Assembly: GCA_018302815.1 (NCBI GenBank)
Contig: JAGVZE010000009.1
Location: 56,149 to 120,148 of the forward strand
Origin: Candidatus Woesearchaeota archaeon
GTDB lineage: Archaea; Nanobdellota; Nanobdellia; Woesearchaeales; ARS49
Direction: 5' to 3'
DNA length: 64,000 nucleotides
The translations under genes and the position numbers were made by a program. A model generated the notes under the pieces. The model made no database searches and was not told where the DNA came from. It saw only the letters and a list, made by a program, of their open reading frames with translations. Shown here piece by piece: positions 5,373-24,921 of the stretch; position 1 is the stretch's first letter, and every line of letters starts with the position of its first letter.

Positions 5373-5433
5373 AGTAATTTTTCTACTAATACCACAGGAA
5401 GGTTTATAAGCAACGCATCGACCCAGACCCGCC

Positions 5434-6717: not shown

Positions 6718-6880
6718 AGAAAGAAATGCCTGTTTTGAATTTGAGACTGCTCGGAAAGACTTTCCGAATTTTCACATACGAAACATTGATGCGCAGGAAC
6801 AAACTCTGAACTTTGTATGGGTAGCTCGCAATAAAACGCTGACATAAGTATATATTTCAAAGCCCTTAACAGTTTGATAC

Positions 6881-9800
6881 ATGGTTGTTCCCAGTCTCCA
6901 GAATTATTCTATTGAGCGTTTGAATAAAGAAATCGCTCAGAACCAGCAACTTATCAGTGAATTACGAGGTCGTGCTGGTCAAGCTAAACGGATTGAGGGC
7001 GCGTCAAAAGGAATTCAACTTCTCCAACTTGAACTTACTTCTCGTCAGATTCAGCAACAGGCGGACGAAGGCATTATTTCTCAAGCTCAAGCTTCGGGTT
7101 TGATACAAGCTAGAGCGTCCAGCACACAAGCGAGTACGAAGCAAGCACCACTAAGCCCTTACGAACGCGCATTCGGACCCGCCAGCTTAACACGACAAGC
7201 AATATTAGCAAAGCCAACAGCACTGCAACAATTAGGCGGTGCGCCGTCACAAATCCAATTCCAAACCATCCCCCGAGAAGTGACATACAAAGTTGGAGAG
7301 CGATTCGGCGAACCAGTCCTAGTCACGCGAAGAGAACAAGCAACGCAAGCACTCCTGCCGTTCGGCAAACTTCAATTCGGCATTCCAGCAAGCCTAGCAT
7401 TCAGCCAAAAAGCACAGCTTGAAGGCATCCCCACCATCACAGACACCAGAGGTATCACCTTAACCGAACAGGGCGAGTTACGCGCTCGCCCAACAACTCG
7501 TTTCGAAAGCCAAACAGAAAAACAACTCCGAGAACAAGTACCGATGGCAAACCGAGCAGTGTTCGAAGCAGACATAACAAAAGAACCTCGCATTCCAGCA
7601 CGAGTCTTAACAGAAACAGAACAACGCGCACTCTTCGCGCCAGCATTCCAAACCAAAGCGAGCATACTAAGCCCACTACTCCAACGACGAGTGGAAGAAC
7701 TTTCACAACCAGAAACCCAACGACCATCCCCTTTCATAGAGCCAACACCAGAAGTGGGGTTGAGTTTTGATTTTCAAAGACAAATACTTGCAAGCCTGCC
7801 TCGACTTGTTGAGCAAACCGCGCAAGAACAAGGCATCACTCCACTCACCAAGTTCACTCGTAAAACTGATTTTTTCAACGCAAAAGAGTTCGGTGGTGAA
7901 ATTCGAAGCATCAGCGAAGAAGTAAATAAAGCCGTTGATTTTGAAAAACTCCTCGCGAAAGCAGGCATCAAAACATCAATACCAAGCAAGGCGATAAGTT
8001 TTGAAGAGTTCAAACTCGTCCCCCTCGTCAAAAAAATAACTCGACCAGAAGAAACTCGACAAAAGCTTCTCAAAGACATTGAGCAAACAGAAAAACTATC
8101 ACCTGCTCTTGCTAAGATAGAACGAGCGTTTGCAGATATTGAGTTCGGAGCGAGAGAGTACGCGAGCAGACCCAGCAACATAGCACTGACCGCCCTTACT
8201 GGTGGAGCGTTCGGACTTGCAGAAAAAGGCGCGCTGGCTGGACTGACTATTTTCAAAGGCGCAACACAAGCCGAAAAAGCGATAAGTAACATTAACAAAA
8301 TACTTCTTGGAGCAACAGCAGGACTTGAAGGTTTACGCATAGCGACAAGCAAGAAGCCTTTTGAAGAAGTCGGAGCCTTGCCATTCAAGCTCATCGCGTT
8401 TGGCGCAGGAGCACAAGCGACGAAAACACTTCTCACACGACAACCTTCAAGGGTTCAAGTTGGTGAGACTTTAATTTTGGAAAAACAAACCATTCCAACA
8501 AGCGAAGGACTGGTTCAAGTCCGAGGAACAGCTATCACTCCTGCTAAAATAACTAGAGTCAGCCCGATAGAAAAAATGTTGACAGACTTACGGTTCAAAC
8601 TCGAAGTTGGAAAAACAGAAGAGTTCAAAATCGTCCGACAGTTCAAAGGAGAAATCAAAATTGCTCGAGAAGAAAAAGTTGACTTGTATGGAGGTGGCAA
8701 AATCGTAAGTGAGAACTTGCGAATAGCAAAAGTCAGCGCGGAAATATTCTCGCAAAACTTGAAAGGCGAACTCGCAAAGTTCGCAGAACAATTAGCTGTT
8801 ATAACCTCATCAGGTCCGTCGGGAGCGAAGGCGTTAGGACAACTAAGAATTCGACGAGTGCGAAAAGGAAAACTCACGCAGAGCATTTTTGAACAAATCG
8901 CGGACATCCAACCATCAGAGATAGGGGGGGTTAGGGTTGTTACTGGAACTGCGAGGCTTCCAGCGATAAAAGGAAAAGTCAGGCGAGAACAGCCTTTCTT
9001 TGAAATTGGCGCGGTTGAAAAGTTCAAACCGCCAAGCCGTCAAAAAATTACTGACATTTTCGAAACAAACATTCGAGAACTGGCAGACAATCTTGACGCG
9101 AGCCTAAGAACTTTAACATTGAAGGAGACACCGCCGCGCAAGCCGTCCAAAAAAACAGTTGAAGAACTATTATCAATACTCCCTCAAGAAAGAGTTTTTT
9201 TCCGTGCGCGAAAAAGAGAAATAACGGCACGACAATTAGAAAAACGTTTCAAAGGAGCCGTTGTTAAACTCCCAAGTAAAGGAGCTTTCAAAGACGCATT
9301 AACTAGAGCGTGGGGCAAAAAAGGACAGTTCATTTTAGGACAGCCGAGTCGCATATCGACAGGCATCAGTCCACGCCCTGCGATAGAACCTGAATCGTTG
9401 AAAGTGAGCATTGATAGAGCACTCTCGCCGTTCCGAACGTTTCAAGTCCCGAAACAAGCTCTTTCACTAGCGTTCGAAAGAGATGTTAGTTTCACCACGC
9501 TCGCGCCAACACAAATTGAAAGAATAGCTCCTTCCAGACTAGCTGAACTTCCCAGACTGCAAACTCGAACGCTTCAAGATGTTGGAACTCAAACTGGTAA
9601 CGCTATCGCAACAATCGTTCAAGGCTTGGAAAAAACTTTGACAGGAACCAAGCCAATAGAAGGCATCAAAATTAAGACGATAACAGGACCGACAGCGCGA
9701 CCGATAGAAATAACCACGCCAGTCACAGGCGCAGGAACAGGAACCACTCCAGCCACAACGCCAAAAGAAGGAACAACCCCCAGACCACGAGGCGAGACAG

Positions 9801-10156
9801 GAACAGGCTTCCAGTTCAGAGAACGACCTTTCGAACCGCCAACACTTCCACTTTTTCCGCCTTTCTTTTTAGGAGGCGGTGGCGGTAGCGAAGAGAGAAG
9901 ACAACAACAACGCTATCCTAGAGCACCAACTCGTCGCGCTCCTAGTTTGTTGGGCTTGTTTTTAGGCAAAAAAGGAATACCGAAAGGAAAACTCACTGGG
10001 CTGGAAATTCGAGGTTTACCAAGAAGCGTTCGGCGCAAACAGTTCGAAATTGAAGGGCGAGACAGGCTTGACTTTGGAATATTAGAACGCAATTTGAAAA
10101 AAGCTTTGGGTATCTCAAAAGTTAAAAAAGGAAAGAGAGGTAAGAAAAAACGATGA
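6881..10156 (+). CDS. large low-complexity protein of the integrated element (candidate structural or DNA-binding protein)
   Basis: 1091 aa. The N-terminus is coiled-coil-like. The protein is rich in Q/T/E/K/R/P. The C-terminus has a TPxTTP stretch, a GGGGGSEERRQQQR segment and a strongly basic tail (KVKKGKRGKKKR). No TM segment and no enzymatic motif. Confidence 0.5.
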   Translation: MVVPSLQNYSIERLNKEIAQNQQLISELRGRAGQAKRIEGASKGIQLLQLELTSRQIQQQADEGIISQAQASGLIQARASSTQASTKQAPLSPYERAFGPASLTRQAILAKPTALQQLGGAPSQIQFQTIPREVTYKVGERFGEPVLVTRREQATQALLPFGKLQFGIPASLAFSQKAQLEGIPTITDTRGITLTEQGELRARPTTRFESQTEKQLREQVPMANRAVFEADITKEPRIPARVLTETEQRALFAPAFQTKASILSPLLQRRVEELSQPETQRPSPFIEPTPEVGLSFDFQRQILASLPRLVEQTAQEQGITPLTKFTRKTDFFNAKEFGGEIRSISEEVNKAVDFEKLLAKAGIKTSIPSKAISFEEFKLVPLVKKITRPEETRQKLLKDIEQTEKLSPALAKIERAFADIEFGAREYASRPSNIALTALTGGAFGLAEKGALAGLTIFKGATQAEKAISNINKILLGATAGLEGLRIATSKKPFEEVGALPFKLIAFGAGAQATKTLLTRQPSRVQVGETLILEKQTIPTSEGLVQVRGTAITPAKITRVSPIEKMLTDLRFKLEVGKTEEFKIVRQFKGEIKIAREEKVDLYGGGKIVSENLRIAKVSAEIFSQNLKGELAKFAEQLAVITSSGPSGAKALGQLRIRRVRKGKLTQSIFEQIADIQPSEIGGVRVVTGTARLPAIKGKVRREQPFFEIGAVEKFKPPSRQKITDIFETNIRELADNLDASLRTLTLKETPPRKPSKKTVEELLSILPQERVFFRARKREITARQLEKRFKGAVVKLPSKGAFKDALTRAWGKKGQFILGQPSRISTGISPRPAIEPESLKVSIDRALSPFRTFQVPKQALSLAFERDVSFTTLAPTQIERIAPSRLAELPRLQTRTLQDVGTQTGNAIATIVQGLEKTLTGTKPIEGIKIKTITGPTARPIEITTPVTGAGTGTTPATTPKEGTTPRPRGETGTGFQFRERPFEPPTLPLFPPFFLGGGGGSEERRQQQRYPRAPTRRAPSLLGLFLGKKGIPKGKLTGLEIRGLPRSVRRKQFEIEGRDRLDFGILERNLKKALGISKVKKGKRGKKKR

Positions 10157-10674
10157 GTGTTAGCTGGCTGAGCAGAATGCTTGCAGTGGCTGCGAAAGAT
10201 GAACTTGTCCTAGCGCAAGCTAAGAAAAACAAGCTCACAATTTATGGTGCTAGAGCGATTCAAAAGCGTTTGGGTTTTTTGAGCCGTCCAACTTATGACT
10301 ATGATGTTTCAGCACGACATCCACAGCGTGAAGCTCGCTTGTTGGAAAAACAGCTTGACAGGATTGCTCAGGGTGACTTGTTTTTTTCGCGTCCGAGCGA
10401 GTTTCATAAAGGAACGCACAAAGTTATTTATGCAGGCTGGGACAACAAGCGAGAAACGAAAGATGACGTTGGCATCGCAGATTTTTCTCGCACTGGAAAA
10501 ATTTGCAGTCAAGCGATAGACGGAGTGAGGTACGCTTGTTTGTCAGCAGTCGAAAAGGACAAGCGCAAAGCGTTATCAAGCAAAGAGTTCGCTTTCAGGC
10601 ATAAGAAGGACGCTGAAGACCTAGAACGCATCAAAATTTACAAGCGAACGTTTGGGTACAGGAGGCGACGATGA
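10153..10674 (+). CDS. hypothetical protein (element)
   Basis: 173 aa. ATGA-type overlap with the upstream gene. Basic C-terminus. Confidence 0.4.
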   Translation: MSVSWLSRMLAVAAKDELVLAQAKKNKLTIYGARAIQKRLGFLSRPTYDYDVSARHPQREARLLEKQLDRIAQGDLFFSRPSEFHKGTHKVIYAGWDNKRETKDDVGIADFSRTGKICSQAIDGVRYACLSAVEKDKRKALSSKEFAFRHKKDAEDLERIKIYKRTFGYRRRR

Positions 10675-10970
10675 AAGACGTATCAATGGATGATTTGAAA
10701 AAAACAAGAGAACTTCTATCAGGCGGAAAAGACAGCGATGATGTGTTAGTCATCCAACTCGCCGTCACAAAACAGGGCGTTGCGGTTCACAGTCTAAGCA
10801 AAATATCGAGTGAACAATACGCCAGCGCGCAAAACGTCGCACAACCAGTAGGTGATGAGGACTGGTCTAGCTTTGAAGAAGACACCGATGAGCCAATGCC
10901 AGCCGTTCAAAACGTCAAACCACTAAGCAAAGCAAAACTCAAACTACAAACAACAAGCTATATTGGGTGA
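10671..10970 (+). CDS. hypothetical acidic protein (element)
   Basis: 99 aa. Overlaps the upstream stop. Acidic composition. Confidence 0.35.
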   Translation: MKDVSMDDLKKTRELLSGGKDSDDVLVIQLAVTKQGVAVHSLSKISSEQYASAQNVAQPVGDEDWSSFEEDTDEPMPAVQNVKPLSKAKLKLQTTSYIG

Positions 10971-10975
10971 AAAAT

Positions 10976-11251
10976 TTACTTTGACAAGTGCGCAGGCAGG
11001 TATTCTTCCATCAAACTAACTTTTTCAGCTATTTTTCTCGTTTTTCGCCAAAGAAGAAAACGTCTTATCCACAAAGGGTCCGTCCACCACTTCATTTGAC
11101 AATATTGATTGTTGAACGCGCTGATTTGTTCTTTGAAACGGGAATATTTATGGTGAATTGATACTTCAAACAAGCCAACAGCCAAGTTCCGCTTGTACTC
11201 GCGCCTCAAAGACGCAACATCGTGTTTGAGGCGTACTCGTGCCATATTCAT
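10976..11251 (-). CDS. hypothetical protein (element)
   Basis: 91-aa ORF, convergent with the plus-strand block. Confidence 0.3.
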   Translation of the reverse strand: MNMARVRLKHDVASLRREYKRNLAVGLFEVSIHHKYSRFKEQISAFNNQYCQMKWWTDPLWIRRFLLWRKTRKIAEKVSLMEEYLPAHLSK

Positions 11252-11401
11252 AAGAAGAACACCAAAATAAGGCAGTTAAAAACCTTTCGAGAAAAACAGC
11301 CCTTACAGTCCTTAATAGTGCTCTAATAGCACTAATAAGAAAACGTTTTTTCTTAACGACCGAAAGACCTAAAAAGAAAGACCCATCGCCAGAGTTTTAA
11401 C

Positions 11402-11563
11402 ATGGCGAAAAAACAAAACGAGTGCGAAAAACGAAACGGACACCGCTTTGACGGATCCAATGCGGACAGTGAGAGCTATGAAAACATGACACTAGAAGTG
11501 ACGTGTTTGGATTGCGAAATGCGATGGGTAGCGGAAAGCAACTGGGAACCTGTCAACGAATAA
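11402..11563 (+). CDS. small Cys/His zinc-ribbon-like protein (53 aa)
   Basis: Read by hand from the sequence: MAKKQNECEKRNGHRFDGSNADSESYENMTLEVTCLDCEMRWVAESNWEPVNE. It has C..H...C..C spacing. It is below the 60-aa cutoff of the ORF track. Confidence 0.25.
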   Translation: MAKKQNECEKRNGHRFDGSNADSESYENMTLEVTCLDCEMRWVAESNWEPVNE

Positions 11564-11589
11564 AACCTTGAATACAAATTCAAAGGCAG

Positions 11590-11612
11590 TTTTTTTTCTT
11601 TATTTTCATTTA
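11590..11612 (+). terminator. T-rich tract (candidate archaeal terminator)
   Basis: 'gttttttttctttattttcattt' lies downstream of the small plus-strand ORF. Confidence 0.25.
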
Positions 11613-11637
11613 CACCAAAACAAACGTCCCTTTAACA

Positions 11638-12174
11638 TCAGGGTGTGCTGGTTGAGGAGTCCAAAACCACACCCCCCTTTTCCTTCTTGGGACGACCACC
11701 TCGCCATTGACCAATGTTGCGTCTTCGCTGAATGCCTGCTTTAGTACGCTCGCTTATCTTGCGCCGTTCCTCGCTCGCCGACCACGCCATGATAGAAAGA
11801 ATCACGTCACCTATCGGGTTATCATTCCCAGTATCAAGCCAGCTTTCCGTAAGACTCTTAACGCCCACGCCGCGCTCTCTGAGCTTCTGCACGCGCCCAA
11901 CAGCGACAAACATAGGCTCACGGCTGAACCTGTCGAACTTCCATACCAGAATGGCTTGGAAGCGTAACAACATCGCGTCTTGAAGCATCTGTCTGAACTG
12001 TGGACGGTTTGGGTCCGCACCACTTCCCCTATCAACGTACTCGTTCACTATTTGCCATTGCTTGTTAATTACCCATTGCCTTAACGGTTCAAGTTGGTTC
12101 TCTGGCTCTTGATACCTGCGGTCTTCTTTGTTTGTCTCATCCAAACTCACGCGAGCATACAAACAAACCTTCAT
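11638..12174 (-). CDS. serine recombinase (resolvase/invertase catalytic domain)
   Basis: 'CLYARVSLDE' carries the YARVS nucleophile motif near the N-terminus. The resolvase-fold length is about 140 aa, followed by a short basic 'GRPKKEKGG' tail. The HTH domain is reduced or absent. Confidence 0.65.
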   Translation of the reverse strand: MKVCLYARVSLDETNKEDRRYQEPENQLEPLRQWVINKQWQIVNEYVDRGSGADPNRPQFRQMLQDAMLLRFQAILVWKFDRFSREPMFVAVGRVQKLRERGVGVKSLTESWLDTGNDNPIGDVILSIMAWSASEERRKISERTKAGIQRRRNIGQWRGGRPKKEKGGVVLDSSTSTP

Positions 12175-12189
12175 TTCGGGTTACACCTG

Positions 12190-12262
12190 TTCTTAACGTA
12201 TCTTTGGCAGGCGTAACGCCACGCTAATAACGCTAATAAGCCTGAAAACATCGCTAATAAGA
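12190..12262. repeat. iteron-like direct repeats CGCTAATAA x3 plus the inverted repeat GGCGT-A-ACGCC
   Basis: 'ggcaggcgtaacgccacgctaataacgctaataagcc...atcgctaataag' lies in the intergenic region between the serine recombinase and the ATPase gene. Confidence 0.5.
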
Positions 12263-12277
12263 AAAACAGCGCGACAA

Positions 12278-13207
12278 TCAAGCAGTATCACCGCCCGTCA
12301 TCCCTGACTTTTCCCGTTCTGATTCTAGGTTACTAACAGTATGAACGCCAACCATTGAGTCTTTGAAACGTGATATTGTACCCTGTACCATGTCTTTTGA
12401 CACTTTTTCACCAGAAAACTTGCTCAAAGCCAATGCTAACTGAGGTTGAGTCCAGCCTTTCTCACTCAAAACCACCATCAAGCTTCCCAAACGATTCAAA
12501 AGCTTCTGAGCAAACTTGTCAGGCTTCTTATCAAGCATCGCCAGCGCGTCAAGCTTACGCCGTTCATACTCTGCGTCATCGAAAGGAAAGAACTTTGTGA
12601 ACGCATCTCGAAAGTCGGGCTGAATGCGCGACGAATAATCCTTTTTGCCCGCAAGGTACAAGCTTTGCTTTCGAGGATACGAGTAAAACTTGAAGAAACC
12701 ACGTTGCAAACGTGTCCCTGCTGGTTTGGTGTACACTTCAATCAAACAACGACTACGATACACCGCGAGATACTTGTCAACCTCGAAAAAGTTTGCGATG
12801 CAAAACAACAAGATGAGTTGTCGGCTCCTGCAAGTTGTCAAAAGCCAAACGAGCCTTTTGTTTTCCGTGCTCATCGAGCCACGACTTGATGCTGTTGCGT
12901 ACGCTTCATCAAATAGTATCACGGTGAACGGCGGAGCCTTCAAAACTAATCTTTGCAAGCTTTCAAAGTCATAACATAAACTTTCAAGCGTGAACGTTGG
13001 CGTTCTTTTGTATCCTTTGCTGATAGCGATGCTTTCACACAACGTGCCCACTTGACAAGCCAGAGTGCTTTTGCCTTCGCCCTCACGACCGCTGAACAAA
13101 AGCACGCCGTCAAACTTATCCGCGACAAGCTCAACAACTGCGTTAAGATTACTGAACAGGTATCCTGAACAGTATACCTCTTGCCCGTTGTGTAATTTTG
13201 TTTTCAT
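12278..13207 (-). CDS. P-loop NTPase (Walker A GREGEGKST, Walker B ILFDEAY)
   Basis: 309 aa. Walker A and Walker B motifs in an AAA/Zot-like arrangement. Located in the mobile element, so possibly a packaging, replication or partition ATPase. Confidence 0.55.
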   Translation of the reverse strand: MKTKLHNGQEVYCSGYLFSNLNAVVELVADKFDGVLLFSGREGEGKSTLACQVGTLCESIAISKGYKRTPTFTLESLCYDFESLQRLVLKAPPFTVILFDEAYATASSRGSMSTENKRLVWLLTTCRSRQLILLFCIANFFEVDKYLAVYRSRCLIEVYTKPAGTRLQRGFFKFYSYPRKQSLYLAGKKDYSSRIQPDFRDAFTKFFPFDDAEYERRKLDALAMLDKKPDKFAQKLLNRLGSLMVVLSEKGWTQPQLALALSKFSGEKVSKDMVQGTISRFKDSMVGVHTVSNLESEREKSGMTGGDTA

Positions 13208-13605
13208 TTCAGCATCGCAACGCTCGGGTTCTCCAGCTCACTCATCAACAAGCCATGTTTTTGCATCAAGTCCCGCAAGAGTTTTTCAAAACTATCAATG
13301 GCTTTGTACGCTTCAAAACCTTTCAGTCCAGTTTCGTGATTGCGCTGGTCGGGGTTACGTAAGCGTAAGACACCATTATAAGCGTTGGTCTTGCGTTGCG
13401 CTTCTGTCTCACTATCACTTGCGCGCTGGCGTTCTTCAACGTTCAAGAAGGGGTATAACTCGCGGTGAACGCTTGTGAGCGTTTGATGCCATTCGGGGAA
13501 CTTTCTCGCAGTCGAACACTGGTTTGACAGCTGTAGGAGCTTGTCAATTCTTTGAAGCGTTGCCTGCGCGCTATTCCAAGAGCTTATACCAAAATCAGCA
13601 CTCAC
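13204..13605 (-). CDS. hypothetical protein (element)
   Basis: 133 aa. Overlaps the neighbouring gene by 4 nt. Confidence 0.35.
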   Translation of the reverse strand: MSADFGISSWNSAQATLQRIDKLLQLSNQCSTARKFPEWHQTLTSVHRELYPFLNVEERQRASDSETEAQRKTNAYNGVLRLRNPDQRNHETGLKGFEAYKAIDSFEKLLRDLMQKHGLLMSELENPSVAMLK

Positions 13606-13991
13606 GAGAAGCTCAAACCTCGGCGAGTTGTTTTTTTATCTTGCGAATTTTGCCCGCGTATTTTGAAGATATTTTTTTCATCTGTCGTCACCTCTTCTTT
13701 TCTTTTAGGAGTAAAATATCCATTCACGTCCTTACCGCATCGCTCGCCTCTGGGAAGAATTCTCAAACGAACACCACCACACTCGCACTGAAGCGCAAAA
13801 GTTTTCATACAAGAAAAACAACCAGCCCAACGGCTTTCGTAAACAATGATGCTCTTGTGGTAACTCTTCGGCGGAACCTTTCCGCAGTGCCTGTGCTTGT
13901 CAACGTAACGGCTTCGCAGAACTGGCTTGTTGCAAAAACGGCACTGCCTAAGAGAAGTTTGATGCACGAGTTCATACTTTGCGCGAGTCAT
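13602..13991 (-). CDS. Cys-rich zinc-finger protein (element)
   Basis: 129 aa with several CxxC / C..H..C clusters. Confidence 0.4.
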   Translation of the reverse strand: MTRAKYELVHQTSLRQCRFCNKPVLRSRYVDKHRHCGKVPPKSYHKSIIVYESRWAGCFSCMKTFALQCECGGVRLRILPRGERCGKDVNGYFTPKRKEEVTTDEKNIFKIRGQNSQDKKTTRRGLSFS

Positions 13992-14636
13992 TCAAACACG
14001 ACCGCGATGTTTTGCGAAAGACGCTTCAAGCTCTTCGGGTGAAAGTTCAGTTGCAGAGTCGAACATCACCATGAAGTCCTGCGGGGTCATCGCCATAAGT
14101 CGGTTCCATGTCATGTTGTCTGCGAGTGGTGGTCCAATGATGAACTTGTTTTTCGGCTGGAATTCGGGCTTGCGAAACCATATCTCGCACATCTGACAAA
14201 CGTTGTGGCGTTTGCAGAATAACCACTGCGTCCCCATGAGACCACAGAAATAACAAAGCTCTTTCGGCTTAACTTCATCGCGTTCAAAAAGACTCATTCT
14301 CTTTCTCCATGTGGCGATGTCTTCAGGTGAGAGTTTGAATTTATAGTTTTGCTTATGACAGTGCGAGCCTCGCAAGCTGGTCTCTTCCGAAGTCATGCCA
14401 ATATCTGCGCCGTGAACGTGCTGCCTTTTGCAGAACGGGCAGTCCACTTGAACGCGGAAGAACCGCGAGCCGTCAAACGCCGTTTCAAGCCCAATGATGC
14501 GCGCTATCACTACAAAAACGCTTAATTGTTCGGCTCTTATAAACCGCCCGCAACACGCGCAATTCTCTGGCGGTTCGCCCTTCATACAGTACGGGTTTGC
14601 GCAATCTCGCTCGCATGGACAACCACTCATTTTCAA
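13992..14636 (-). CDS. Cys-rich protein (element)
   Basis: 214 aa with more than 20 Cys in CxC/CxxC arrangements. Confidence 0.4.
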   Translation of the reverse strand: MKMSGCPCERDCANPYCMKGEPPENCACCGRFIRAEQLSVFVVIARIIGLETAFDGSRFFRVQVDCPFCKRQHVHGADIGMTSEETSLRGSHCHKQNYKFKLSPEDIATWRKRMSLFERDEVKPKELCYFCGLMGTQWLFCKRHNVCQMCEIWFRKPEFQPKNKFIIGPPLADNMTWNRLMAMTPQDFMVMFDSATELSPEELEASFAKHRGRV

Positions 14637-14778
14637 AACACCTCTCTTTTTTGTTTACGAATGAAACGTCGCGCTCTGGTAAGCTCTCTGTGCAACGAAG
14701 ACAGCGCGGTAGCGTTCTCGGCTTCAAGTTGTACGAACAAGCGGTTTAAACCACTACTGCGCTGTTTAAAACCCGTAT

Positions 14779-15765
14779 TCATAATTTATCCCTCATTGCG
14801 ATGAACTGAAGTACGCGGTACGGTACTTTGTCTTTTTTCCCGCAAAGACCGCGATGCCACGCCTGCTTGACGGCGTGATAAAGTGCTTCATCGTTACCTT
14901 CGTAACGGCTTCGCCCGCCATTATGCGGCGTGCCTGCGTCTTCGCAACCCAAAAAACCACTCTCAACACAAAGATATTGTTGCGCGTTCAATGACACAAT
15001 GTGTCGCCAACAATGCCCCAAGCCCCCACTAACGCTCCAGTTTTTCCCCGTGTTTTCGCTTCCATGTAAGGGGTGCGGGACTCTGCCACCCTTCAAACCC
15101 GCAGAGCACACGTCCCTGATTGTTAATTCATAAAATGCACTTTTACGACCCCCCTTCTGATAAGTTCGCGGAACAGGCGCAGTTCTCTCAAGCTCGATGT
15201 TTTCCTGATGTCTTTCGCGGAATACGGGCGGGAGTTCATCGAAGGTGATGTTTGTAGGCATCGTTGCGACCTCAACAGTGTAACGTCCCGCGCTCGCTTT
15301 CAGCTCTTCAGGTAATGTGTTGATGTGTTCTTGGCTTCGCGGAACGTAACTGCCAGCGCAGACGACGTACTGCCAAATCGACCTGACTTCCCCTGACCCG
15401 CCTGTTGGAATGTTCGGTATCTTCTTACCTTCTGGCTGAAAATAGAATGCGTGAAAACCAACGCGCTTACTCGAACGGCTCGTCAAGGTCGGCTTCAATT
15501 TTTCCAACGGTGTTTTCTGGATGTCATCAACGTCAACGATGACCAGCCCGTCAAGGTCAGTCCCCGCTATTCCGATGTTGTATCCCACCTTCAAAAGTTG
15601 AACTGCCTGCTGAACTGTCAGCCTCGCTTTTTTCCACGAACCACTCACGCATGGGTCTTTGCCATTCTTCAACAAGCGGAACAAAAACGGTTCGTATGTC
15701 GCAGGCATTCCCTGTTTCAGGAGCGTGATGAACTTCAAAAACTCATCAGGACACGTCGCATTCAT
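14779..15765 (-). CDS. bifunctional primase-polymerase (PrimPol-domain) protein
   Basis: 'DLDGLVIVDVDD' resembles the PrimPol catalytic D.D motif region. Translationally coupled to the upstream D5-like helicase by a 4-nt overlap. Confidence 0.55.
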   Translation of the reverse strand: MNATCPDEFLKFITLLKQGMPATYEPFLFRLLKNGKDPCVSGSWKKARLTVQQAVQLLKVGYNIGIAGTDLDGLVIVDVDDIQKTPLEKLKPTLTSRSSKRVGFHAFYFQPEGKKIPNIPTGGSGEVRSIWQYVVCAGSYVPRSQEHINTLPEELKASAGRYTVEVATMPTNITFDELPPVFRERHQENIELERTAPVPRTYQKGGRKSAFYELTIRDVCSAGLKGGRVPHPLHGSENTGKNWSVSGGLGHCWRHIVSLNAQQYLCVESGFLGCEDAGTPHNGGRSRYEGNDEALYHAVKQAWHRGLCGKKDKVPYRVLQFIAMRDKL

Positions 15766-17792
15766 TCGAGCACCTTCAACTTATGGGGATTAACCTGAAC
15801 AACCGTGTTTTTGATTAACGCGAGGGATACTGCGCCCTCACCAACCTCTTTCACCACGACATCATACTCTGCGCCCTCACCCAAGTCCAAACGGCGAACG
15901 ACACCCCCCACAAGTTCAGATAACGCGCAGTCTTCACAATACGGTTTTCCCGACCTTTGGTACGAGCAAGGCGACCCAGCACAGCCAATACAAGGGTGGT
16001 GTGTGATGTCAGTCTTTTCAAAACCTGCATTGAACAGAAGTGAGGGAACGCCCTGCTCGACCTGCCCGCCCTGCCCAGTTGGGTTGGGTGGTCTGGGCGG
16101 GCAGTGTGATTTTCTATTATCGTCTACTTTTTCATTATTTACTATATTTTTATCATTATTTACTATATTTTTATCATTTCCCTGTGTGTCAAGAGAGTGA
16201 TTTTCTGCCACCCCACCGTGCCCGCCCTGCCCATTTGTTCGTGGTCGTTCTTTTTCCCCCTGTTCTGACTGTTCGAAAAGCTTAGCTTGGTTATCTTCCG
16301 TGTTATCTTCATTTTCTTCTTTTTTCGCGGTTTTCAATTTAATTCCGCGAACATAATGAACACGTTTTTCACTTTTTTCAATCCGTTTTTTTATCGACCG
16401 CGTGTACGATGCCTTTGCGTACAATTTTTTGAAAAAATCGTTTTCATCGAAACATTCAATTTCGCGGTCGTCGCAATAATCGCGGTACGCGAAGTAAACA
16501 TCATCCTTCAATTCTTTTTCATCATCCGCTTTAATCGTGCAGTCCATAACGAAACACAAAACGGGGTCGGTTTTTCGAAGGTATATTTCGCGGGTTTGCG
16601 CGACCTCCGCGCCGAACCCTTTGGCGTTCAATAATTCGTTTAATCCGTCCAAAGCGAAGTTCAACATTCCCGACAATTCGTTCGGCGTTGTGATTTTTTC
16701 ACTTTTTTTGGTATCCGCATTTTTTTCTTCAAATTTTTGTTTGAATAAAATCAAAATTGGTCTGCGCCACATCGCCGTGTCATCCTCGGGTAATTGCGGT
16801 AATTCGTTCGCCGAAAACGCGAGTTTCGCGTACACATTCAAATTAACATGCGCGCCGAATTTGTATTCCCCTGTGATTGTGTCCCCGCCCGTAATCGTTT
16901 TTATCGTTGACACGGATTGTTTATCTAAATTTTTCCCCGAAATGTCGGGCACGATGTTCGCCAGTTTACCGTGAAGGTTCACGACCGAAAATCGGTCGCG
17001 CATATTGTGCGGGCTTATCGTGCTGATGTTTTTTTGCCCGATGAATTTCGTCATTGCGCGAAGCAGTGTTGATTTTCCGTTCGCGCCCTCGCCTTCAAGC
17101 ATTAAAAAATTGGCGAATCGGTAATCGCGCAGTAAGGTATATCCAAACCATTTTTTTAATACTGCCCTGTCGTTTTGTTGTGTTGTGGGTAGGATTTCTT
17201 CGAGGAATTTTTCGAACTCTGGACATTTGGCGTTGGAGTCGTATTTCACGTCAATTTTTTGTAAAAACGGCGTTTCGGGGGTGTGCGGTGTTATTTTTTT
17301 GGTGAACACGTTTAATATTCCGTTTTGCACGCAGAAAAGTTCGGGTGGTGCTTCGGGAAATTCGGTTTTGCACGTCATGGAATATATTTTTGATGTGACT
17401 TCGTTTTTCATATTTCGCGTGGCGAACGCGCCGAGAATTTGTTGTACCAATAAATTTATTTTTTGTTTTCCGTTGGGCGTGTAATATCCGTTTTCGTAAA
17501 CGTAAATTGTCGGGCGGTCGGGGTCGCCGATGCTGATGAAATGTTGCGTTGTTAATATCGCGTCTGCGGTTTCCTGCGCGATTTCTGCCGTGCTTTTTTC
17601 GCGGTCGCTCGCATCATCGATGCCTTCGGCGCGTAATATTTTCACTGCATCTTTTTTCTGTTTTTTATTTAATTCTTTTTTCTGTGTGGGCTTCTCGTTT
17701 TTCGCTTTTTTCGTTTTTTGTGTTGAAGGTTTTGTTGGCTTGACTGCTGTTTTTCGTGGTGATGTCTTTTTGAGCTTAGTTTTCTTAACCAC
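15762..17792 (-). CDS. D5/P4-family primase C-terminal domain plus SF3 helicase
   Basis: 676 aa. 'FLMLEGEGANGKSTL' is the Walker A in the context of a P4-type primase-helicase. The N-terminus is Lys-rich. The C-terminus has a Cys cluster (CIGCAGSPC...CEDC) and a tandem DKNIVNN repeat. Confidence 0.75.
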   Translation of the reverse strand: MVKKTKLKKTSPRKTAVKPTKPSTQKTKKAKNEKPTQKKELNKKQKKDAVKILRAEGIDDASDREKSTAEIAQETADAILTTQHFISIGDPDRPTIYVYENGYYTPNGKQKINLLVQQILGAFATRNMKNEVTSKIYSMTCKTEFPEAPPELFCVQNGILNVFTKKITPHTPETPFLQKIDVKYDSNAKCPEFEKFLEEILPTTQQNDRAVLKKWFGYTLLRDYRFANFLMLEGEGANGKSTLLRAMTKFIGQKNISTISPHNMRDRFSVVNLHGKLANIVPDISGKNLDKQSVSTIKTITGGDTITGEYKFGAHVNLNVYAKLAFSANELPQLPEDDTAMWRRPILILFKQKFEEKNADTKKSEKITTPNELSGMLNFALDGLNELLNAKGFGAEVAQTREIYLRKTDPVLCFVMDCTIKADDEKELKDDVYFAYRDYCDDREIECFDENDFFKKLYAKASYTRSIKKRIEKSEKRVHYVRGIKLKTAKKEENEDNTEDNQAKLFEQSEQGEKERPRTNGQGGHGGVAENHSLDTQGNDKNIVNNDKNIVNNEKVDDNRKSHCPPRPPNPTGQGGQVEQGVPSLLFNAGFEKTDITHHPCIGCAGSPCSYQRSGKPYCEDCALSELVGGVVRRLDLGEGAEYDVVVKEVGEGAVSLALIKNTVVQVNPHKLKVLE
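16131..16175. repeat. tandem direct repeat and flanking G-rich inverted repeats inside the helicase gene
   Basis: 'ttactatatttttatcattatttactatatttttatcatt' is a 21-22 nt unit repeated twice. Next to it, 'ctgcccgccctgcccag...ctgggcgggcag' forms an inverted repeat (16056-16100), and 'gcccgccctgccca' recurs at 16223. Confidence 0.6.
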
Positions 17793-18007
17793 TACCGCAC
17801 CTGTCCCCGTTGCGGGAGTGTGTTGTTTTGAAGCGTTGTGAGGGCTTCGAGCTTTCTTTGTCGATAGGCTGTCTGCTCACAAGCCCGACTGCAATAAAGC
17901 GCGTCTATGCGTTTATTTCGAGAAAGCTGTTCCTTGCAAAAATCACATCGCCTGAACTGTGAGGTTTTCGCAGGTTTTAAAATTTTAGTTTGGTTTGTTG
18001 TCATCAA
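17792..18007 (-). CDS. small zinc-ribbon protein (element)
   Basis: 71 aa with CDFC...CSRAC. Start/stop overlap with the helicase gene. Confidence 0.35.
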   Translation of the reverse strand: MMTTNQTKILKPAKTSQFRRCDFCKEQLSRNKRIDALYCSRACEQTAYRQRKLEALTTLQNNTLPQRGQVR

Positions 18008-18211
18008 TATCCTCGGCTTTTACGCCTTTTGGCGGGTTTTCGAGATTCGCCTCTCACCCGCCACTTTTTTCTCTTAACTTGAAATCAATTCTTTTTTTAG
18101 CGTGATAACTCGTTGAGTTTTTTGATTAGGCTTTGAGCAGGTGCGGATAATGTCTGGATTTCTTGTGACGGTATGTTGAGAAGTTCGCGGATTGATTTTT
18201 GTAGGTTGTCT

Positions 18212-18370
18212 TTAATCAAGGGATGGTTGAGCATCACCCGTTGCATTTTTCAACGAAGCTCGACGGATGAACGTGGCGACTGGCATGACTTCGCGTTTCG
18301 CCGCATTTCTGAGCGCGCTTAATTCGGCTTCGCTTAAACGTAGGTTCAAAAATTTCGTTCGTGGTTTCAT
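18212..18370 (-). CDS. ribbon-helix-helix (CopG/MobC-like) small DNA-binding protein (52 aa)
   Basis: Read by hand: MKPRTKFLNLRLSEAELSALRNAAKREVMPVATFIRRASLKNATGDAQPSLD. It matches the RHH pattern (beta-strand 'FLNLRLS', then 'SALRNAAKREVMPVATFIRRA'). A TATA-like 'aaatattaaatac' lies upstream on the minus strand. Confidence 0.4.
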   Translation of the reverse strand: MKPRTKFLNLRLSEAELSALRNAAKREVMPVATFIRRASLKNATGDAQPSLD

Positions 18371-18479
18371 CGTGGACTTTTCGAGTGCGTAACAAGTATT
18401 TAATATTTCAGAATTTCAGTGCAGTGCTAACAAGAACTTACCCATGACTATGTATGCGTGATTGTTAGTTATTTTAACC

Positions 18480-18495
18480 ATCCCAGCAGGCTCGT
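18480..18495. repeat. attR1: 'atcccagcaggctcgt' copy of the tRNA 3' end
   Basis: 16/16 match to 5357-5372. Confidence 0.7.
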
Positions 18496-18607
18496 TTCAT
18501 TTTATCACGCTTCGCGTTTCTCATTTCAGTCACTATGGGATTCGAACGTCCAGACATCTGCGGATGTCTATCCCTTAGAATCGCTCGCTGATGCTCGCAC
18601 TTCTAAG

Positions 18608-18625
18608 GAATCCCAGCAGGCTCGT
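18608..18625. repeat. attR2: 'gaatcccagcaggctcgt' second copy of the tRNA 3' end
   Basis: 18/18 match to 5355-5372. The flanking 't.taa.tt' is partly conserved as well. Confidence 0.7.
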
Positions 18626-18714
18626 TATAACTTAACTGAGAAGCACGCTTGGAATTATTATTAGAATAATCTGTGGCAAAAGATTAATAACTGTCTTTCG
18701 TAGTTCGTCATAAA

Positions 18715-19539
18715 ATGGTCAATTCGAATGAGTTACGTTGGGTCGGTTTAGAACTGGATTGGTGCGGGGAAGGTTTTTCTCCTTATTCAGATGGGCGTTC
18801 GCTTTGCTATTCGTCTGGCTTGAAAGGAGGTTATTGTTTGATACATTCGCCGTCGGATGATAATTCGTTCAGAGATTTTGATCGGCTTCAAGATGGATCC
18901 ATAGTGATTTCCTCATTGCTTGACTTTTATGAAAGAGATTGGCTAGGGGCTGCTGCTTCAGGAGCGATATGGACCGATTACTCTTCAAAAGATGTCCCTA
19001 TGATGCGGGCAAAGCTTGAAAAGGAACTTATTATGAAAACTCCTGATGGTCGTCATTTTGTTTGGTTAACAGAACCAAAGCCATATGTGTCTGATGTAAC
19101 GAGCGCATTTTTGCGAAAAGACATCGCCGACTTGCTAACGAGTTCAGAAGGAGATCTTTCAACTGCATTATTCTCTGGAATAAGGGTGTATGGGGAGTTG
19201 CACAAAAGAGGACTCATATTGCAAGGTTCAGATAATGATCTTAAACTGAAAAGAGTGCAATGGGAAAAAACTGCGCTTAACTCATATGATGCGCAATTAG
19301 GTCATTTTTTGCGAACAGGCGAAGGAAAGGAAGCAATAGACAAATTAACTTACGGTGTTCAGATCTTTTGCGGCGTAGATCAAACAAGACTGCGTCGTCT
19401 ATTGACTTATGATGGTGCAGCCTTTCAACAGAATCTGGAGCGAATTGCAGTATTGTATTACAAAAATGATGTGAGCGCGCTTCAAAACGACCTTGAGCAG
19501 TTGAAGCAGGAATTGAAGGGAACTTCTAAACGAGCTTAA
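18715..19539 (+). CDS. hypothetical protein, between att copies
   Basis: 274-aa ORF with no motif recognised. It lies between attR2 and the partial att3. Confidence 0.4.
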   Translation: MVNSNELRWVGLELDWCGEGFSPYSDGRSLCYSSGLKGGYCLIHSPSDDNSFRDFDRLQDGSIVISSLLDFYERDWLGAAASGAIWTDYSSKDVPMMRAKLEKELIMKTPDGRHFVWLTEPKPYVSDVTSAFLRKDIADLLTSSEGDLSTALFSGIRVYGELHKRGLILQGSDNDLKLKRVQWEKTALNSYDAQLGHFLRTGEGKEAIDKLTYGVQIFCGVDQTRLRRLLTYDGAAFQQNLERIAVLYYKNDVSALQNDLEQLKQELKGTSKRA

Positions 19540-19558
19540 GAGTTATTCTACAAAGCAC

Positions 19559-19569
19559 GGCAGGCTCGT
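19559..19569. repeat. partial att-like copy 'ggcaggctcgt' with a flank similar to attR1
   Basis: 'agttattctacaaagcacggcaggctcgttttcatttc' (19541-19578) resembles 'agttattttaaccatcccagcaggctcgtttcatttt' (18468-18504). Confidence 0.5.
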
Positions 19570-19577
19570 TTTCATTT

Positions 19578-20057
19578 CTAAAAAGGCACATCTGAACTTT
19601 TACCAAAATACCCGCAAACCACGTCACTTGCAGGAATCGGCTCGTACATCGTCTGAAGGCCGTTCAACAACTGATCGAGAATCAATTCTCGGTAGACGAA
19701 TTCAAAAGCATGAGGATGACTGCAAGCGCCCTTTCGTTTGCCAGTGTATTCCTTATCTTTCGCGTCCTTGATTTTCAGCAAAGCTTTCAATGAACGGTCC
19801 CTTCGAAAATGATCGTATCGCGAATACAACTCACGATACCAGTTGGGATTGCAGTTCTCGACCACTCTGATTTTGTGGCCGCTAAAATTCTTCTGAGGAG
19901 CTTCAGCAAGAGAAACCTGCAAACGGTGCTCTAACAGATCAGAACGCAAATAATCTGCGTGGCTTTGAAACTCTCTTCGCACACGCCTTGGAAGTTCAAT
20001 AATAGGACGCTCTGGAACCCACATACTTCCCGCTCGAGAGAAGCGGTTTAAAAACAT
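19578..20057 (-). CDS. hypothetical protein
   Basis: 159 aa. Last gene of the argS-led minus-strand operon. Confidence 0.4.
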   Translation of the reverse strand: MFLNRFSRAGSMWVPERPIIELPRRVRREFQSHADYLRSDLLEHRLQVSLAEAPQKNFSGHKIRVVENCNPNWYRELYSRYDHFRRDRSLKALLKIKDAKDKEYTGKRKGACSHPHAFEFVYRELILDQLLNGLQTMYEPIPASDVVCGYFGKSSDVPF

Positions 20058-20447: not shown

Positions 20448-22124
20448 TCACATCTCGAACGGAGCTGTGATACCGAGCAGGCGCAGCCCGTTCTCTAAAA
20501 TCTGCCTAGACGCCTCAATCAAAGTAAGCCTTGCGACTTTAAGGTCCTTATTCTCCTCCTGAAGGCACGGACACGAATGGTAGAACTCGTTGAACGCGTG
20601 GCCGACCTCGAGCAAATACTGCGCGAGAACGTGCGGCTTGTGAACAGCAAGAGCTTCTTTAACCTTCTGCGGGAAAGCTGAAAGCAATTTTATCACCCTA
20701 TCTTCTGCCGGATGCTTAAGAACTTCAAACTTCGCGGCTTTCTTCGGACTCACCTTCTGCTCCTTGCCCTTGCGAACAATGCTCGCCGCCCTTGCGTGAG
20801 TGTACATCAAATACGGACCAGTATCGCCCTCGAATGAAACAAACCTGTCCAAGTCGAAAACTATGTCCTTAGAACGGTCATTCATCATATCGCCAAAGAA
20901 AATCGCGCCAATAGCAACGTCGCACGCTATCTTCTCCTTATCTTTAAGACCAGGATTCTTCTCCTCAATTGTTTTTTTAGCAAGAGCTATCGCTTCGTTC
21001 AATACTCCCTCCATCGAAATACCTGTTCCCTTCCGAGTCGACATCTTAGAGCCATCCTGCGAAAGATACAAACCATAAGAAACGTGAACGAACTCTTTAT
21101 CATAACCAAGCAGTTTCATCAACGCGAACAAATGCTGAAAATGCTGAGACTGCTCGTGTCCAACGACATAAACCAGCTTATTGCACTTCAACGTCTCGAT
21201 TCTGTCAAGAACAGTCGCGACATCACGGCTTGCGTACGTGGTCGAACCATCGCGCTTTCTAAGCATCATCGGCATCTCTGAACCTTGCATCCTGATGATA
21301 AGCGCGCCGTCATCGACAACCGCAAGACCCTTTGCCTGCACACGCTCCAACGCAGCTTCGACCTTGGGCGCGTAGAACGCCTCGCCATTGAAACTATCAA
21401 AAGTAATGCCCAGAGTCTTATACACGCCGCGTAATTCATCAAGGCACAAATGCTTGAACTTACTCCACAACTTAAGCGCCATCGCATCACCCTTCTCAAG
21501 CTTTGCGAACCACTCGCGCGCTTTTTCTTTTAACTCTGCGCTGTTTTCAGCTTCCTTGTTGAATCTGACATAGAGCTCGACCAAATGCTCAACAGGATGC
21601 TCCTTGAAACGCTTCTTATCACCCCAAGTCAAATACGCGTGGATAAGAGTTCCGAACTGCGTTCCCCAATCGCCAAGATAATTCAGGCGCAGAACATTAA
21701 AACCTGCGAACTCGTGCAATCTTGCAATCGAATTGCCCAGCATTGTCGTTCTCAAATTGCCAAAATGCAAAGGCTTTCCGATATTCGGAGAAGAGAAATC
21801 TATACCCACAATCCTGCCTTCGCCATCCCTTGAACTTGCGAAACGCTTCTTCTGCGTCAAAATATCAAGCATCAAACTCTTCGCGACACCGGCCGTGTCC
21901 AAGAAAAAGTTCACATACGGACCTGTCGCAGAAACACGAACGCCCTGCACCTTGATTTTTCCAGCAAGCTCCTGCGCAATCTGCACAGGACTCTTCTTGA
22001 ACTCTTTTGCAAGCGTGAAACAAGGAAACGCGAAATCGCCAAGCTTATGGTCAGGAGGAACCTCAAGAGAGATCTCGCCCTTCACGTGCTTCTTTAGCTC
22101 AGAAATAATCGCTTGCTTGAACAT
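20448..22124 (-). CDS. argS: arginine--tRNA ligase
   Basis: 558 aa. N-terminal anticodon-binding-like domain. 'SPNIGKPLHFGNLR' is the HIGH-region analogue of ArgRS. Terminal '...APFEM' is typical of ArgRS. Confidence 0.9.
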   Translation of the reverse strand: MFKQAIISELKKHVKGEISLEVPPDHKLGDFAFPCFTLAKEFKKSPVQIAQELAGKIKVQGVRVSATGPYVNFFLDTAGVAKSLMLDILTQKKRFASSRDGEGRIVGIDFSSPNIGKPLHFGNLRTTMLGNSIARLHEFAGFNVLRLNYLGDWGTQFGTLIHAYLTWGDKKRFKEHPVEHLVELYVRFNKEAENSAELKEKAREWFAKLEKGDAMALKLWSKFKHLCLDELRGVYKTLGITFDSFNGEAFYAPKVEAALERVQAKGLAVVDDGALIIRMQGSEMPMMLRKRDGSTTYASRDVATVLDRIETLKCNKLVYVVGHEQSQHFQHLFALMKLLGYDKEFVHVSYGLYLSQDGSKMSTRKGTGISMEGVLNEAIALAKKTIEEKNPGLKDKEKIACDVAIGAIFFGDMMNDRSKDIVFDLDRFVSFEGDTGPYLMYTHARAASIVRKGKEQKVSPKKAAKFEVLKHPAEDRVIKLLSAFPQKVKEALAVHKPHVLAQYLLEVGHAFNEFYHSCPCLQEENKDLKVARLTLIEASRQILENGLRLLGITAPFEM

Positions 22125-23931: not shown

Positions 23932-24140
23932 AAATGCGCATACACTACGACAAAGAAGCAGACTACTTGGAAGTTCGCTTCGGAAAAGCCACACACTCGT
24001 ACTTCGAAGAACTAGGCAAAGACATTTTCGAACGCAGAGATGAAAAAACAGGAAAAATAAAAGGCTACGCAGTCTACAACTTCCTCAAACGAAAACAACT
24101 CAAAGACATACAGATAGAGATGCCTTGTTCGGAACTCTGA
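23928..24140 (+). CDS. DUF2283-family putative antitoxin
   Basis: 'MKMRIHYDKEADYLEVRFGKA' matches the DUF2283 N-terminal signature (YDxExDxLYIxF). Confidence 0.6.
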   Translation: MKMRIHYDKEADYLEVRFGKATHSYFEELGKDIFERRDEKTGKIKGYAVYNFLKRKQLKDIQIEMPCSEL

Positions 24141-24692: not shown

Positions 24693-24921
24693 AGAACAAT
24701 AGTATAGTATTGCATATAAATGACTTTTCTTCGTTATTTGGACAAGCTCAATGATTGCTCAATAGAAAACAACTCAAAGACATACAAATAGAGATGCCTG
24801 ATGCATAAAGATAATAATTTAAAAAATCACTCACCTGGTGCATTAAACGTGCGTACAAGAGATTATTTTGGAAAGTTAAACTTATCACAAGTAGCTTAAT
24901 AAATCGACCAAACTTAGTAAA

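Follow-up and report, generated by a model that had tools for sequence, protein, structure and literature searches.

The 64,000-nucleotide (nt) stretch of the Candidatus Woesearchaeota contig JAGVZE010000009.1 that was analyzed here (hereafter, the window) contains a locus in which the 3′ end of a single tRNA-Arg gene (anticodon UCG) recurs between an intact integrated element (E1) and two short segments, namely a spacer with hairpins and a 0.9-kb remnant that carries a 274-amino acid (aa) orphan open reading frame (ORF274). We interpret this locus as a tandem accretion array that was assembled at the 3′ end of one tRNA-Arg(UCG) gene in three steps, and we place the probability of this model at about 0.75; the exact number and order of the events are less certain. 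A sequence-only reading of the same DNA had noted three copies resembling an attachment site (att) and had attributed them to successive integrations at one tRNA hotspot. That attribution is borne out as the best reading of the locus, and the tRNA gene that is the source of the repeat (5258-5371), which had not been located at that time, adds a fourth member to the repeat. In the array, the att-bounded segments at 18495-18607 and 18625-19559 lack an integrase and stand in tandem with the integrase-bearing E1.

The Target tRNA Gene and Its Repeats

The integration target is a tRNA-Arg gene on the forward strand at 5258-5371 that matches the full length of the Rfam tRNA model (RF00005; 50.7 bits) with a 45-nt insertion inside the anticodon loop. 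This loop reads CUUCGGA, and the gene is therefore tRNA-Arg(UCG). Its intron comprises 40-odd nt, on account of which ARAGORN made no call of the tRNA at 5258-5371. Intron-bearing tRNAs of ~112-117 nt are also present in all four relatives (L043, 3138-3249; L044, 18503-18617; L046, 17512-17628; and L048, 15750-15865), and the intron is nearly unchanged in L043 (GCGATGATATGAGCA..GCGTTGGCTAAGAC).

The repeated motif of the array is the 3′ end (the last 15-17 nt) of this tRNA gene. The last 15 nt (5357-5371; ATCCCAGCAGGCTCG) constitute the attL core of E1, and the 3′ end was identified again at 18480-18494 (copy 1) and 18608-18624 (copy 2), with a half copy at 19560-19568 (copy 3). The sequence ATCCCAGCAGGCTCGTT occurs exactly at 18480-18496 and 18610-18626, with one mismatch at 5357-5373, and with three mismatches at 19554-19570. 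When up to three mismatches were allowed, these four matches in the window compared with an expectation of 0.14, and four were reached by none of 100 shuffles. Likewise, the 11-mer GCAGGCTCGTT has three exact matches where 0.05 were expected.

The neighborhood of the array is that of an archaeal chromosome, with ribosomal protein S17e encoded at 5015-5209 and arginyl-tRNA synthetase (ArgRS) at 20448-22124 on the reverse strand. A 167-kb metagenome contig in ENA matches the window with 100% identity, and near-identical contigs were detected in ~10 samples. A scan of GTDB genomes with ArgRS yielded no usable close comparison, as the nearest species representatives (mostly Woesearchaeota) were 39-54% identical.

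Boundaries of E1 and the Attachment Site of Its Family

E1 (5372-18479, forward strand) is bounded by direct repeats that agree at 15 of 15 positions (5357-5371 and 18480-18494), and the flanking tRNA gene is complete. Copy 1, the attR of E1, spans 18467-18494 on the forward strand and comprises an arm (AGTTATTTTAACC, 18467-18479) followed by the 15-nt core (ATCCCAGCAGGCTCG, 18480-18494).

The closest homolog of the E1 integrase (65% identical) is encoded on a 10.5-kb contig (L118), the gene order of which is a circular permutation of that of E1: minus-strand genes for the helicase, the primase, and small proteins run into the plus-strand integrase gene. L118 has no tRNA and one att-like site only, in which TTGATAGTTAATTGGCTC, ATCCCTGCAGGCTCG, and TAGCATTTT are followed by TTTATAA and then by the ATG of the integrase. 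Its arm-plus-core (AGTTAATTGGCTC, then ATCCCTGCAGGCTCG) has an architecture in common with copy 1. This site is the attP of the E1 family and comprises an AGTTAWTT-type arm, a 15-nt core (ATCCCWGCAGGCTCG), and, facing the integrase, a TAGYAWTTT arm. It sets the core length to 15 nt and places the arms at the same offsets as in copy 1 and attL.

The family attP fits both the attL of the window (core followed by TAGTAATTT) and copy 1 (AGTTATTTTAACC followed by core) exactly, and the arm of copy 1 matches that of the L118 attP at 8 of 13 positions (p = 0.005). It follows that copy 1 is the genuine attR of E1 and that E1 corresponds to 5372-18479. The family attP is also fitted by the attL (TAGCAATTT) of L014, where another integrase-element variant occupies the same tRNA, and by L119, where a tRNA-Leu is followed by TAGCAACTT and, 60 nt downstream, by an integrase that is 44% identical to that of E1. 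E1 itself differs between strains, with 97% identity in L013 and a different variant in L014. Collectively, with a free form seen in the relative L118, the reading of E1 as an integrated element is well supported.

Two further features of L118 were observed. In its attP region (L118 5808-5865), a second T-loop-like motif (GGTTCGAATCTCACC) lies ten nt downstream of the core; it resembles a piece of some other tRNA and may have been left by an earlier switch of target. L118 also encodes a homolog of the serine recombinase of E1 (28% identical to the 178-aa protein) at the same relative position.

Based on Pfam and PHROG matches and on called genes, E1 is an intact, plasmid-like integrated element of 13.1 kb that includes replication genes. 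It encodes a 427-aa tyrosine integrase (5434-6717; PF00589, E = 1.1e-17) and a 1091-aa protein (6881-10156) on the forward strand. The reverse strand encodes a small serine recombinase/invertase of 178 aa (11638-12174; PHROG matches to integrase, E = 3.6e-40, and DNA invertase, E = 3.9e-33), an AAA ATPase (12278-13207), a PrimPol (14779-15765), a D5/DUF5906 helicase (15762-17792), and a NikA-like protein at the right end (18212-18370). E1 also encodes small DNA-binding proteins, and no conjugation genes were identified in it with Pfam or PHROGs.

The catalytic residues of the E1 integrase (R166, H286, R289, and Y321) are invariant in an alignment of five sequences. A total of 1805 relatives were recovered at E <= 1e-20, most of them ~35% identical and a handful > 45% identical. 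A conserved, zinc-ribbon-like C-terminal CxxC...CxxC was observed in this integrase family (residues ~350-372; window 6400-6717), and many database homologs of the E1 integrase carry the zinc-ribbon Pfam domains PF13240 and PF13248. The integrase ORF of E1 is unsplit and colinear with its free-form homolog, with the att located 62 nt upstream of the start codon. SSV-type integration was therefore rejected, given that the att lies outside of the integrase ORF and the gene is not partitioned; we take the integration of E1, with its unsplit integrase gene, to be of the pNOB8 type.

Copy 3 and the Ancestral Host Flank

Copy 3 (19560-19590, forward strand), which is read as the outermost and oldest attR, comprises a half core (GCAGGCTCG, 19560-19568) followed by host flank (TTTTCATTTCTAAAAAGGCACA, 19569-19590). 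The flank overlaps the stop codon of a gene for a 159-aa protein on the reverse strand (19578-20057). A 13-nt arm (AGTTATTCTACAA, 19541-19553) precedes the half core at the same distance as in copy 1 and attP (AGTTA, 8 nt, 6 nt, and then GCAGGCTCG), and the left half of the core has decayed (AGCACG at 19554-19559 as compared to ATCCCA). The resemblance between the flanks of copies 1 and 3 that had been pointed out previously holds up upon alignment: 18467-18497 and 19541-19571 are 77% identical over 31 nt (repeat family D15), and the 19 nt upstream of GCAGGCTCG match the copy 1 arm at 12 of 19 positions, which is equaled at a fraction of 5e-4 of window positions (p = 5e-4). The third site thus shares more than a 10-nt core, in that it has the arm spacing of copy 1 and attP and then continues into host flank.

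The identity of this flank was established from relatives with S17e proteins that are 68-78% identical to that of the window, which were recovered in a scan of JGI data. In one of these (L043), S17e is followed 55 nt later by an intron-bearing tRNA that is 88.6% identical to that of the window. The host flank downstream of the L043 att (CTTTATTTTATCAAATGGCACA) is matched by the flank of copy 3 (TTTTCATTTCTAAAAAGGCACA) at 16 of 22 positions (p = 8e-6). Copy 3 therefore adjoins the ancestral host flank, in keeping with an outermost and oldest attR. In addition, homology with an array-free haplotype (L016) resumes exactly at 19578, 9 nt past the copy 3 core.

Remnant 3 and ORF274

The segment that ends at copy 3 is an integrase-less remnant of 0.9 kb (remnant 3, or E3; 18625-19559, forward strand), which carries ORF274 and ends in the arm AGTTATTCTACAA and AGCACG. 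The junction between ORF274 and copy 3 is identical in L121, in which a neighboring 148-aa protein differs at seven residues. Given this constancy in a diverged haplotype, remnant 3 is an old resident, and its reading as a remnant is well supported. No recombinase was found within 18495-18607 or 18625-19559 in scans of ORFs, Pfam, and PHROGs. The possibility that remnant 3 is a plain deletion derivative of E1 was rejected based on the lack of similarity of 18627-19577 to the rest of the window or to L118.

ORF274 was called at 18715-19539 on the forward strand, as had been described from the sequence, and its description as an orphan is apt: it has no Pfam, PHROG, or PDB-sequence match and was matched by only three word-indexed entries among 5.8 billion proteins and by nine homologs among 1.84 billion representatives. 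In the public record, ORF274 and its neighbor are annotated as hypothetical proteins within a Candidatus Woesearchaeota metagenome-assembled genome. Its synteny is not conserved, as none of 80 related loci was matched by tblastn (including seven in which ArgRS is beside S17e) and ORF274 is absent from L016. No match to ORF274 was found in IMG/VR, and a search of IMG/VR with the 18-mer core returned two unrelated coding regions only. A fairly confident AlphaFold2 model of ORF274 (predicted local distance difference test, 78; predicted template modeling score, 0.71) retrieved nothing from PDB with Foldseek at E <= 0.001 and has no recognizable fold. Homologs of ORF274 adjoin genes of the ParE or nucleotidyltransferase type, and neither an integrase nor a tRNA lies close to them.

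Copy 2 as a Probable Former tRNA End

Copy 2 (GAATCCCAGCAGGCTCG, 18608-18624, forward strand) comprises 17 nt of the tRNA 3′ end and is an exact match to 5355-5371, which extends 2 nt beyond the 15-nt core of the E1 family. It had been described as the longer copy, and indeed GAATCCCAGCAGGCTCGT at 18608-18625 is identical to 5355-5372. The right flank of copy 2 (TTATAACTT) matches the integrase-side arm of the family at 6 of 9 positions, both in E1 (p = 0.011) and in L119 (p = 0.01), and it matches the 20 nt that directly follow the L016 tRNA at 12 of 20 positions (p = 0.002). The likeness to the post-tRNA flank of L016 argues that copy 2 is a former tRNA end and that 18625-19559 is a discrete unit between copies 2 and 3. 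These matches support a reading of copy 2 as the putative former working 3′ end of the tRNA, which would have served as the attL of remnant 3 and as the attR of the stub discussed below.

A split tRNA at copy 2 (a 3′ half, as in Nanoarchaeum) was considered and rejected. Only 17 nt of tRNA (T-loop to end) are present, and the sequence upstream of copy 2 has no significant tRNA similarity.

The Spacer With Hairpins

The spacer between copies 1 and 2 is 113 bp in length as delimited here (18495-18607, forward strand); the length of 112 bp given for it earlier (18496-18607) is correct. It begins with TTTCATTTTATCAC (18495-18508), which is host-flank-like and matches the L043 host flank at 11 of 14 positions (p = 1e-4). 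An inverted T-arm fragment follows at 18536-18555, the reverse complement of which (TCTGGACGTTCGAATCCCAT) agrees with the tRNA T-arm at 18 of 20 positions with a 2-nt indel, as attained by 1 of 1000 shuffles. Together with 18608-18615 of copy 2, 64 nt away, the fragment makes up a perfect inverted repeat of 8 nt. The two hairpins that had been reported in the spacer both exist, with starts that lie 8-12 nt from those given: hairpin 1 (AGACATC-TGCG-GATGTCT) occupies 18552-18569 rather than 18561-18576, and hairpin 2 (CCTTAGAA-20 nt-TTCTAAGG) occupies 18573-18608 rather than 18585-18608. We rejected the view that the spacer arose by decay from an inverted copy of the entire tRNA 3′ exon and intron, as the score of the remainder beyond the 20-nt T-arm was attained by 426 of 2000 shuffles.

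The best reading of the spacer is that of a stub left by a lost, separate second element (E2). A comparable structure was identified in L043 (3233-3401), where the tRNA end is separated from a second att copy, which has two mismatches (TAATCCCGGCGAGCTCG), by a hairpin-rich stub of 135 bp that starts with the TAGCA arm of the family. The L043 stub is unrelated in sequence to the spacer of the window. Short att-flanked stubs therefore recur in this lineage, which favors a stub over a conserved small RNA. Both had been offered previously as explanations for the spacer; the stub is the one that we infer, and neither the Rfam scan nor the L043 stub lends support to a small RNA.

The Array-Free Haplotype and Rearrangement of the Locus

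An array-free haplotype, L016 (1-564; ENA ERZ27254861), aligned to window 4785-5372 and 19578-19636, with everything from the tRNA to 19578 missing. In L016, S17e is followed after 61 nt by the tRNA gene and its promoter in reverse orientation and, after a further 44 nt, by the window from 19578 onward. The S17e DNA of L016 is 96% identical to that of the window, the tRNA is identical, and the C-terminus of the 159-aa gene product is identical to variant P0134. The flanks of L016 are diverged rather than copied from the window, and L016 is therefore not a chimera of window-type reads. The L016 tRNA is followed by a 20-nt scar like the right flank of copy 2 and then by a host-flank 8-mer (TTTTCATT). 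L016 has the appearance of a locus whose tRNA terminated at what is copy 2 in the window and from which remnant 3 was later almost wholly deleted. A candidate match of the L016 tRNA flank to the integrase-side arm of an L118-like element was not significant (p = 0.09-0.13), and the flank resembles that of copy 2 instead.

The protein haplotype closest to L016 (P0135) retains copy 3 and ORF274, and L043 shares the S17e-promoter-tRNA arrangement of the window. Together, these observations indicate that L016 was derived by deletion of the array and inversion of the tRNA module. The inversion could be the work of the integrase, of the serine invertase of E1, or of illegitimate recombination; no inverted att pair was found at the L016 breakpoints.

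Gene order around the array also differs among relatives. In L039, L043-L046, L048, and L049, the genes for ArgRS, a 129-aa protein, and S17e are co-directional and adjacent, and in some the tRNA is next. Unlike these relatives, the window has its S17e-tRNA block inverted relative to the ArgRS block (2079-22124). The same relatives have no counterparts of the genes for the 159-aa (19578-20057) and 615-aa (2986-4833) proteins. In addition, the outer edges of the array (5365-5384 and 19578-19662) coincide with contig ends in several independent samples, which is consistent with co-existing strains that differ in occupancy of the site. Like its absence from L016, these contig ends mark the array as inserted DNA.

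Proposed History of the Array and Alternatives

In the proposed mechanism, a tyrosine integrase would recombine the 15-nt core of a circular attP (arm, ATCCCWGCAGGCTCG, TAGYAWTTT, and integrase) with the identical end of the tRNA gene, such that the element would supply a new tRNA 3′ end and the old end would move to the far side as a direct repeat. In the first step, an element of the same integrase family would have inserted, leaving copy 3 as its far junction and copy 2 as the working tRNA end; it would then have lost its integrase and nearly everything else, to leave 0.9 kb with ORF274. In the second step, another element would have inserted with an att region that carried 17 nt of tRNA and ~14 nt of host-like flank, and it would have decayed to the 113-bp stub. 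The 13.1-kb E1 would have inserted last, producing copy 1 (an exact attR) and the present tRNA end. The order of these events, the former separateness of the spacer, and the mobility of any unit are presumed from the arrangement of the locus.

Several observations weigh against this history. Copies 1 and 3 are each followed by the start of the host flank, which the three-step model can accommodate only by assuming host-like flank in the att region of the second element. The model assigns no part to the inverted T-arm fragment, and the near-identity of the spacer copies leaves the history of the spacer untraceable. The interior of remnant 3 (18627-19577) has neither nucleotide nor translated similarity to E1, to the rest of the window, or to L118, and its placement in the E1 family is drawn from short arms only, the left of which fits weakly (6 of 9 positions). 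A circular or excised E1 was not recovered, as exact-protein look-ups of the integrase and the NikA-like gene returned integrated contexts only. Finally, a pristine empty site (tRNA and core followed by TTTTCATTT; tRNA-core-TTTTCATTTCTA) was not recovered: L016 lacks the array but is rearranged, with its tRNA inverted and a 20-nt scar, and L043 has S17e and the tRNA with a 135-bp stub.

The main rival, though unlikely, is that two events occurred rather than three. A small circle with an attR-like site (arm, core, and host flank) would have recombined with the resident attR of an E1-family element, or this attR would have been duplicated locally, so that ~18509-19553 would represent one insertion between the paralogous junctions at copies 1 and 3; copy 2 and the inverted T-arm fragment would then be internal relics of an earlier rearrangement. 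This would account for the double occurrence of the arm, core, and flank start, which copies 1 and 3 have in common over ~37 nt (D15), with both right flanks resembling the L043 host flank (p = 1e-4 and p = 8e-6, respectively). The inverted tRNA fragment in the spacer, with its perfect 8-nt inverted repeat to copy 2, and the demonstrable propensity of the locus for rearrangement (L016 and the differences in synteny) are also in keeping with two events. However, copy 2 comprises 17 nt of perfect tRNA sequence, and its right flank resembles the family arm and the post-tRNA flank of L016, which is how an old attL, and not a relic, would look. Moreover, the copy 3 junction predates the divergence of haplotypes, whereas E1 varies (97% identity in L013 and a variant in L014). 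We therefore favor the three-step model.

A related conjecture, which we regard as doubtful, is that the att array is an active recombination substrate from which the integrase or the serine invertase deletes units and flips tRNA-Arg together with its promoter. This would give rise to the co-existing haplotype with an inverted tRNA and no array, and the T-arm fragment would then be the footprint of an earlier flip. If true, an essential tRNA gene would undergo integrase-linked inversion in a DPANN archaeon, as a small analog of the chromosome flipping by the pTN3 integrase in Thermococcales.

Still less probable is that the spacer is a functional unit that has been kept for its hairpins, either as a small structured RNA or as a recombination-directionality or binding site. 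The two stems are perfect (7 and 8 bp) and co-occur in 0.15% of spacer shuffles, the minus strand folds with a z-score of -2.2, and the spacer is identical or near-identical in every recovered contig from several samples (100% identity to the window in L001, L003, and L004, 99.97% in L002, and 99.8% in L033). Given this near-identity, covariation is untestable, and the identity itself reflects near-clonal strains rather than constraint. The folding of the region is modest when compared to shuffles (the plus strand has a z-score of -1.9). An Rfam scan of 18350-18750 at E <= 10 returned a single hit (snoR116; E = 9.1) with 14 bits against a gathering score of 47, which is not credible. No relatives of the spacer were detected in IMG/VR or in the 80 related loci, and the stub of L043 is unrelated to it. 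These results are better accommodated by a stub of a lost element. L033 departs from the window at 19049 and appears to be a chimera; we therefore left it out of the evidence for alternative cargo.

The proposition that copies 2 and 3 are chance matches and that copy 1 is the sole real attachment site is effectively refuted: copy 3 does share only 11 contiguous nt with the core, amid T-rich, low-complexity flanks, but copy 2 is a perfect 18-mer, four matches arose in 0 of 100 shuffles, and copy 3 has its arm and flank at fixed offsets (p = 5e-4 and p = 8e-6) and sits 9 nt from where homology with L016 resumes.

Other Repeats in the Window

Repeats were also observed elsewhere in the window. 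A 156-nt unit occurs three times at 48530-50018, at intervals of ~660-675 nt; the other two copies share 94% and 62% identity with the reference copy. At 36086-36283 lies a 99-nt tandem duplication (72% identical), and a 45-nt pair (91% identical) is located at 24081-24125 and 24755-24799, 674 nt apart. These are probably repeated gene modules.

Comparison With Known Systems

The array most closely recalls the tandem accretion of integrative elements next to decayed, integrase-less neighbors, as described for cis-mobilizable elements (CIMEs) and ICESt1-type arrays of streptococci (PMC5704250, section 2.3). In both cases, one functional element stands next to att-bounded remnants, with direct repeats of a tRNA 3′ end in between. 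The stepwise growth proposed here is the course described there for bacterial ICE/IME/CIME tandems, and it has also been noted for archaeal elements with tyrosine recombinases (PMC6563490). The host here is a DPANN archaeon rather than a bacterium, E1 yielded no conjugation genes with Pfam or PHROGs, one of the remnants measures only 113 bp, and the array carries an inverted tRNA fragment. The defining behavior of CIMEs is cis-mobilization, whereas the likeness drawn here is one of layout.

Archaeal elements with tyrosine recombinases that target tRNA genes and form arrays by reuse of one site have been surveyed in Thaumarchaeota (PMC6563490). Like these, E1 has direct-repeat attL and attR that match the tRNA 3′ end and an intact integrase beside attL. 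The lineage and the element family differ, and the integrase of E1 has a C-terminal CxxC...CxxC tail.

The rearrangements at this locus bring to mind Int-pTN3 of Thermococcales, which drives chromosomal inversions between att/tRNA sites (PMC5495485). In L016, the tRNA and its promoter are inverted exactly at the integration hotspot, and the spacer of the window holds an inverted T-arm fragment. In contrast to the inversions of large chromosomal segments attributed to Int-pTN3, that in L016 involves ~0.2 kb, and no inverted att pair was found at its breakpoints; the serine invertase of E1 could equally be responsible.

Scars of this kind are well known; the novelty of the array lies in the little-studied host lineage, in an element family delimited together with its attP, and in a rearrangement-prone hotspot that has a haplotype with an inverted tRNA. 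For Woesearchaeota, a DPANN lineage with few delimited mobile elements so far, an attachment site (15-nt core and both arms), a target (tRNA-Arg UCG), and element boundaries are defined here. For annotation or binning of this genome, 5372-19559 (~14.2 kb) represents non-core DNA, and the array accounts for the breaks, at window positions 5.38 kb and 19.6 kb, in assemblies of this population. The haplotype with the inverted tRNA provides a concrete case for the study of integrase-linked rearrangement. The locus indicates that the stepwise process of integration, decay, and renewed integration, familiar in bacteria and in other archaea, is at work in these very small genomes as well.

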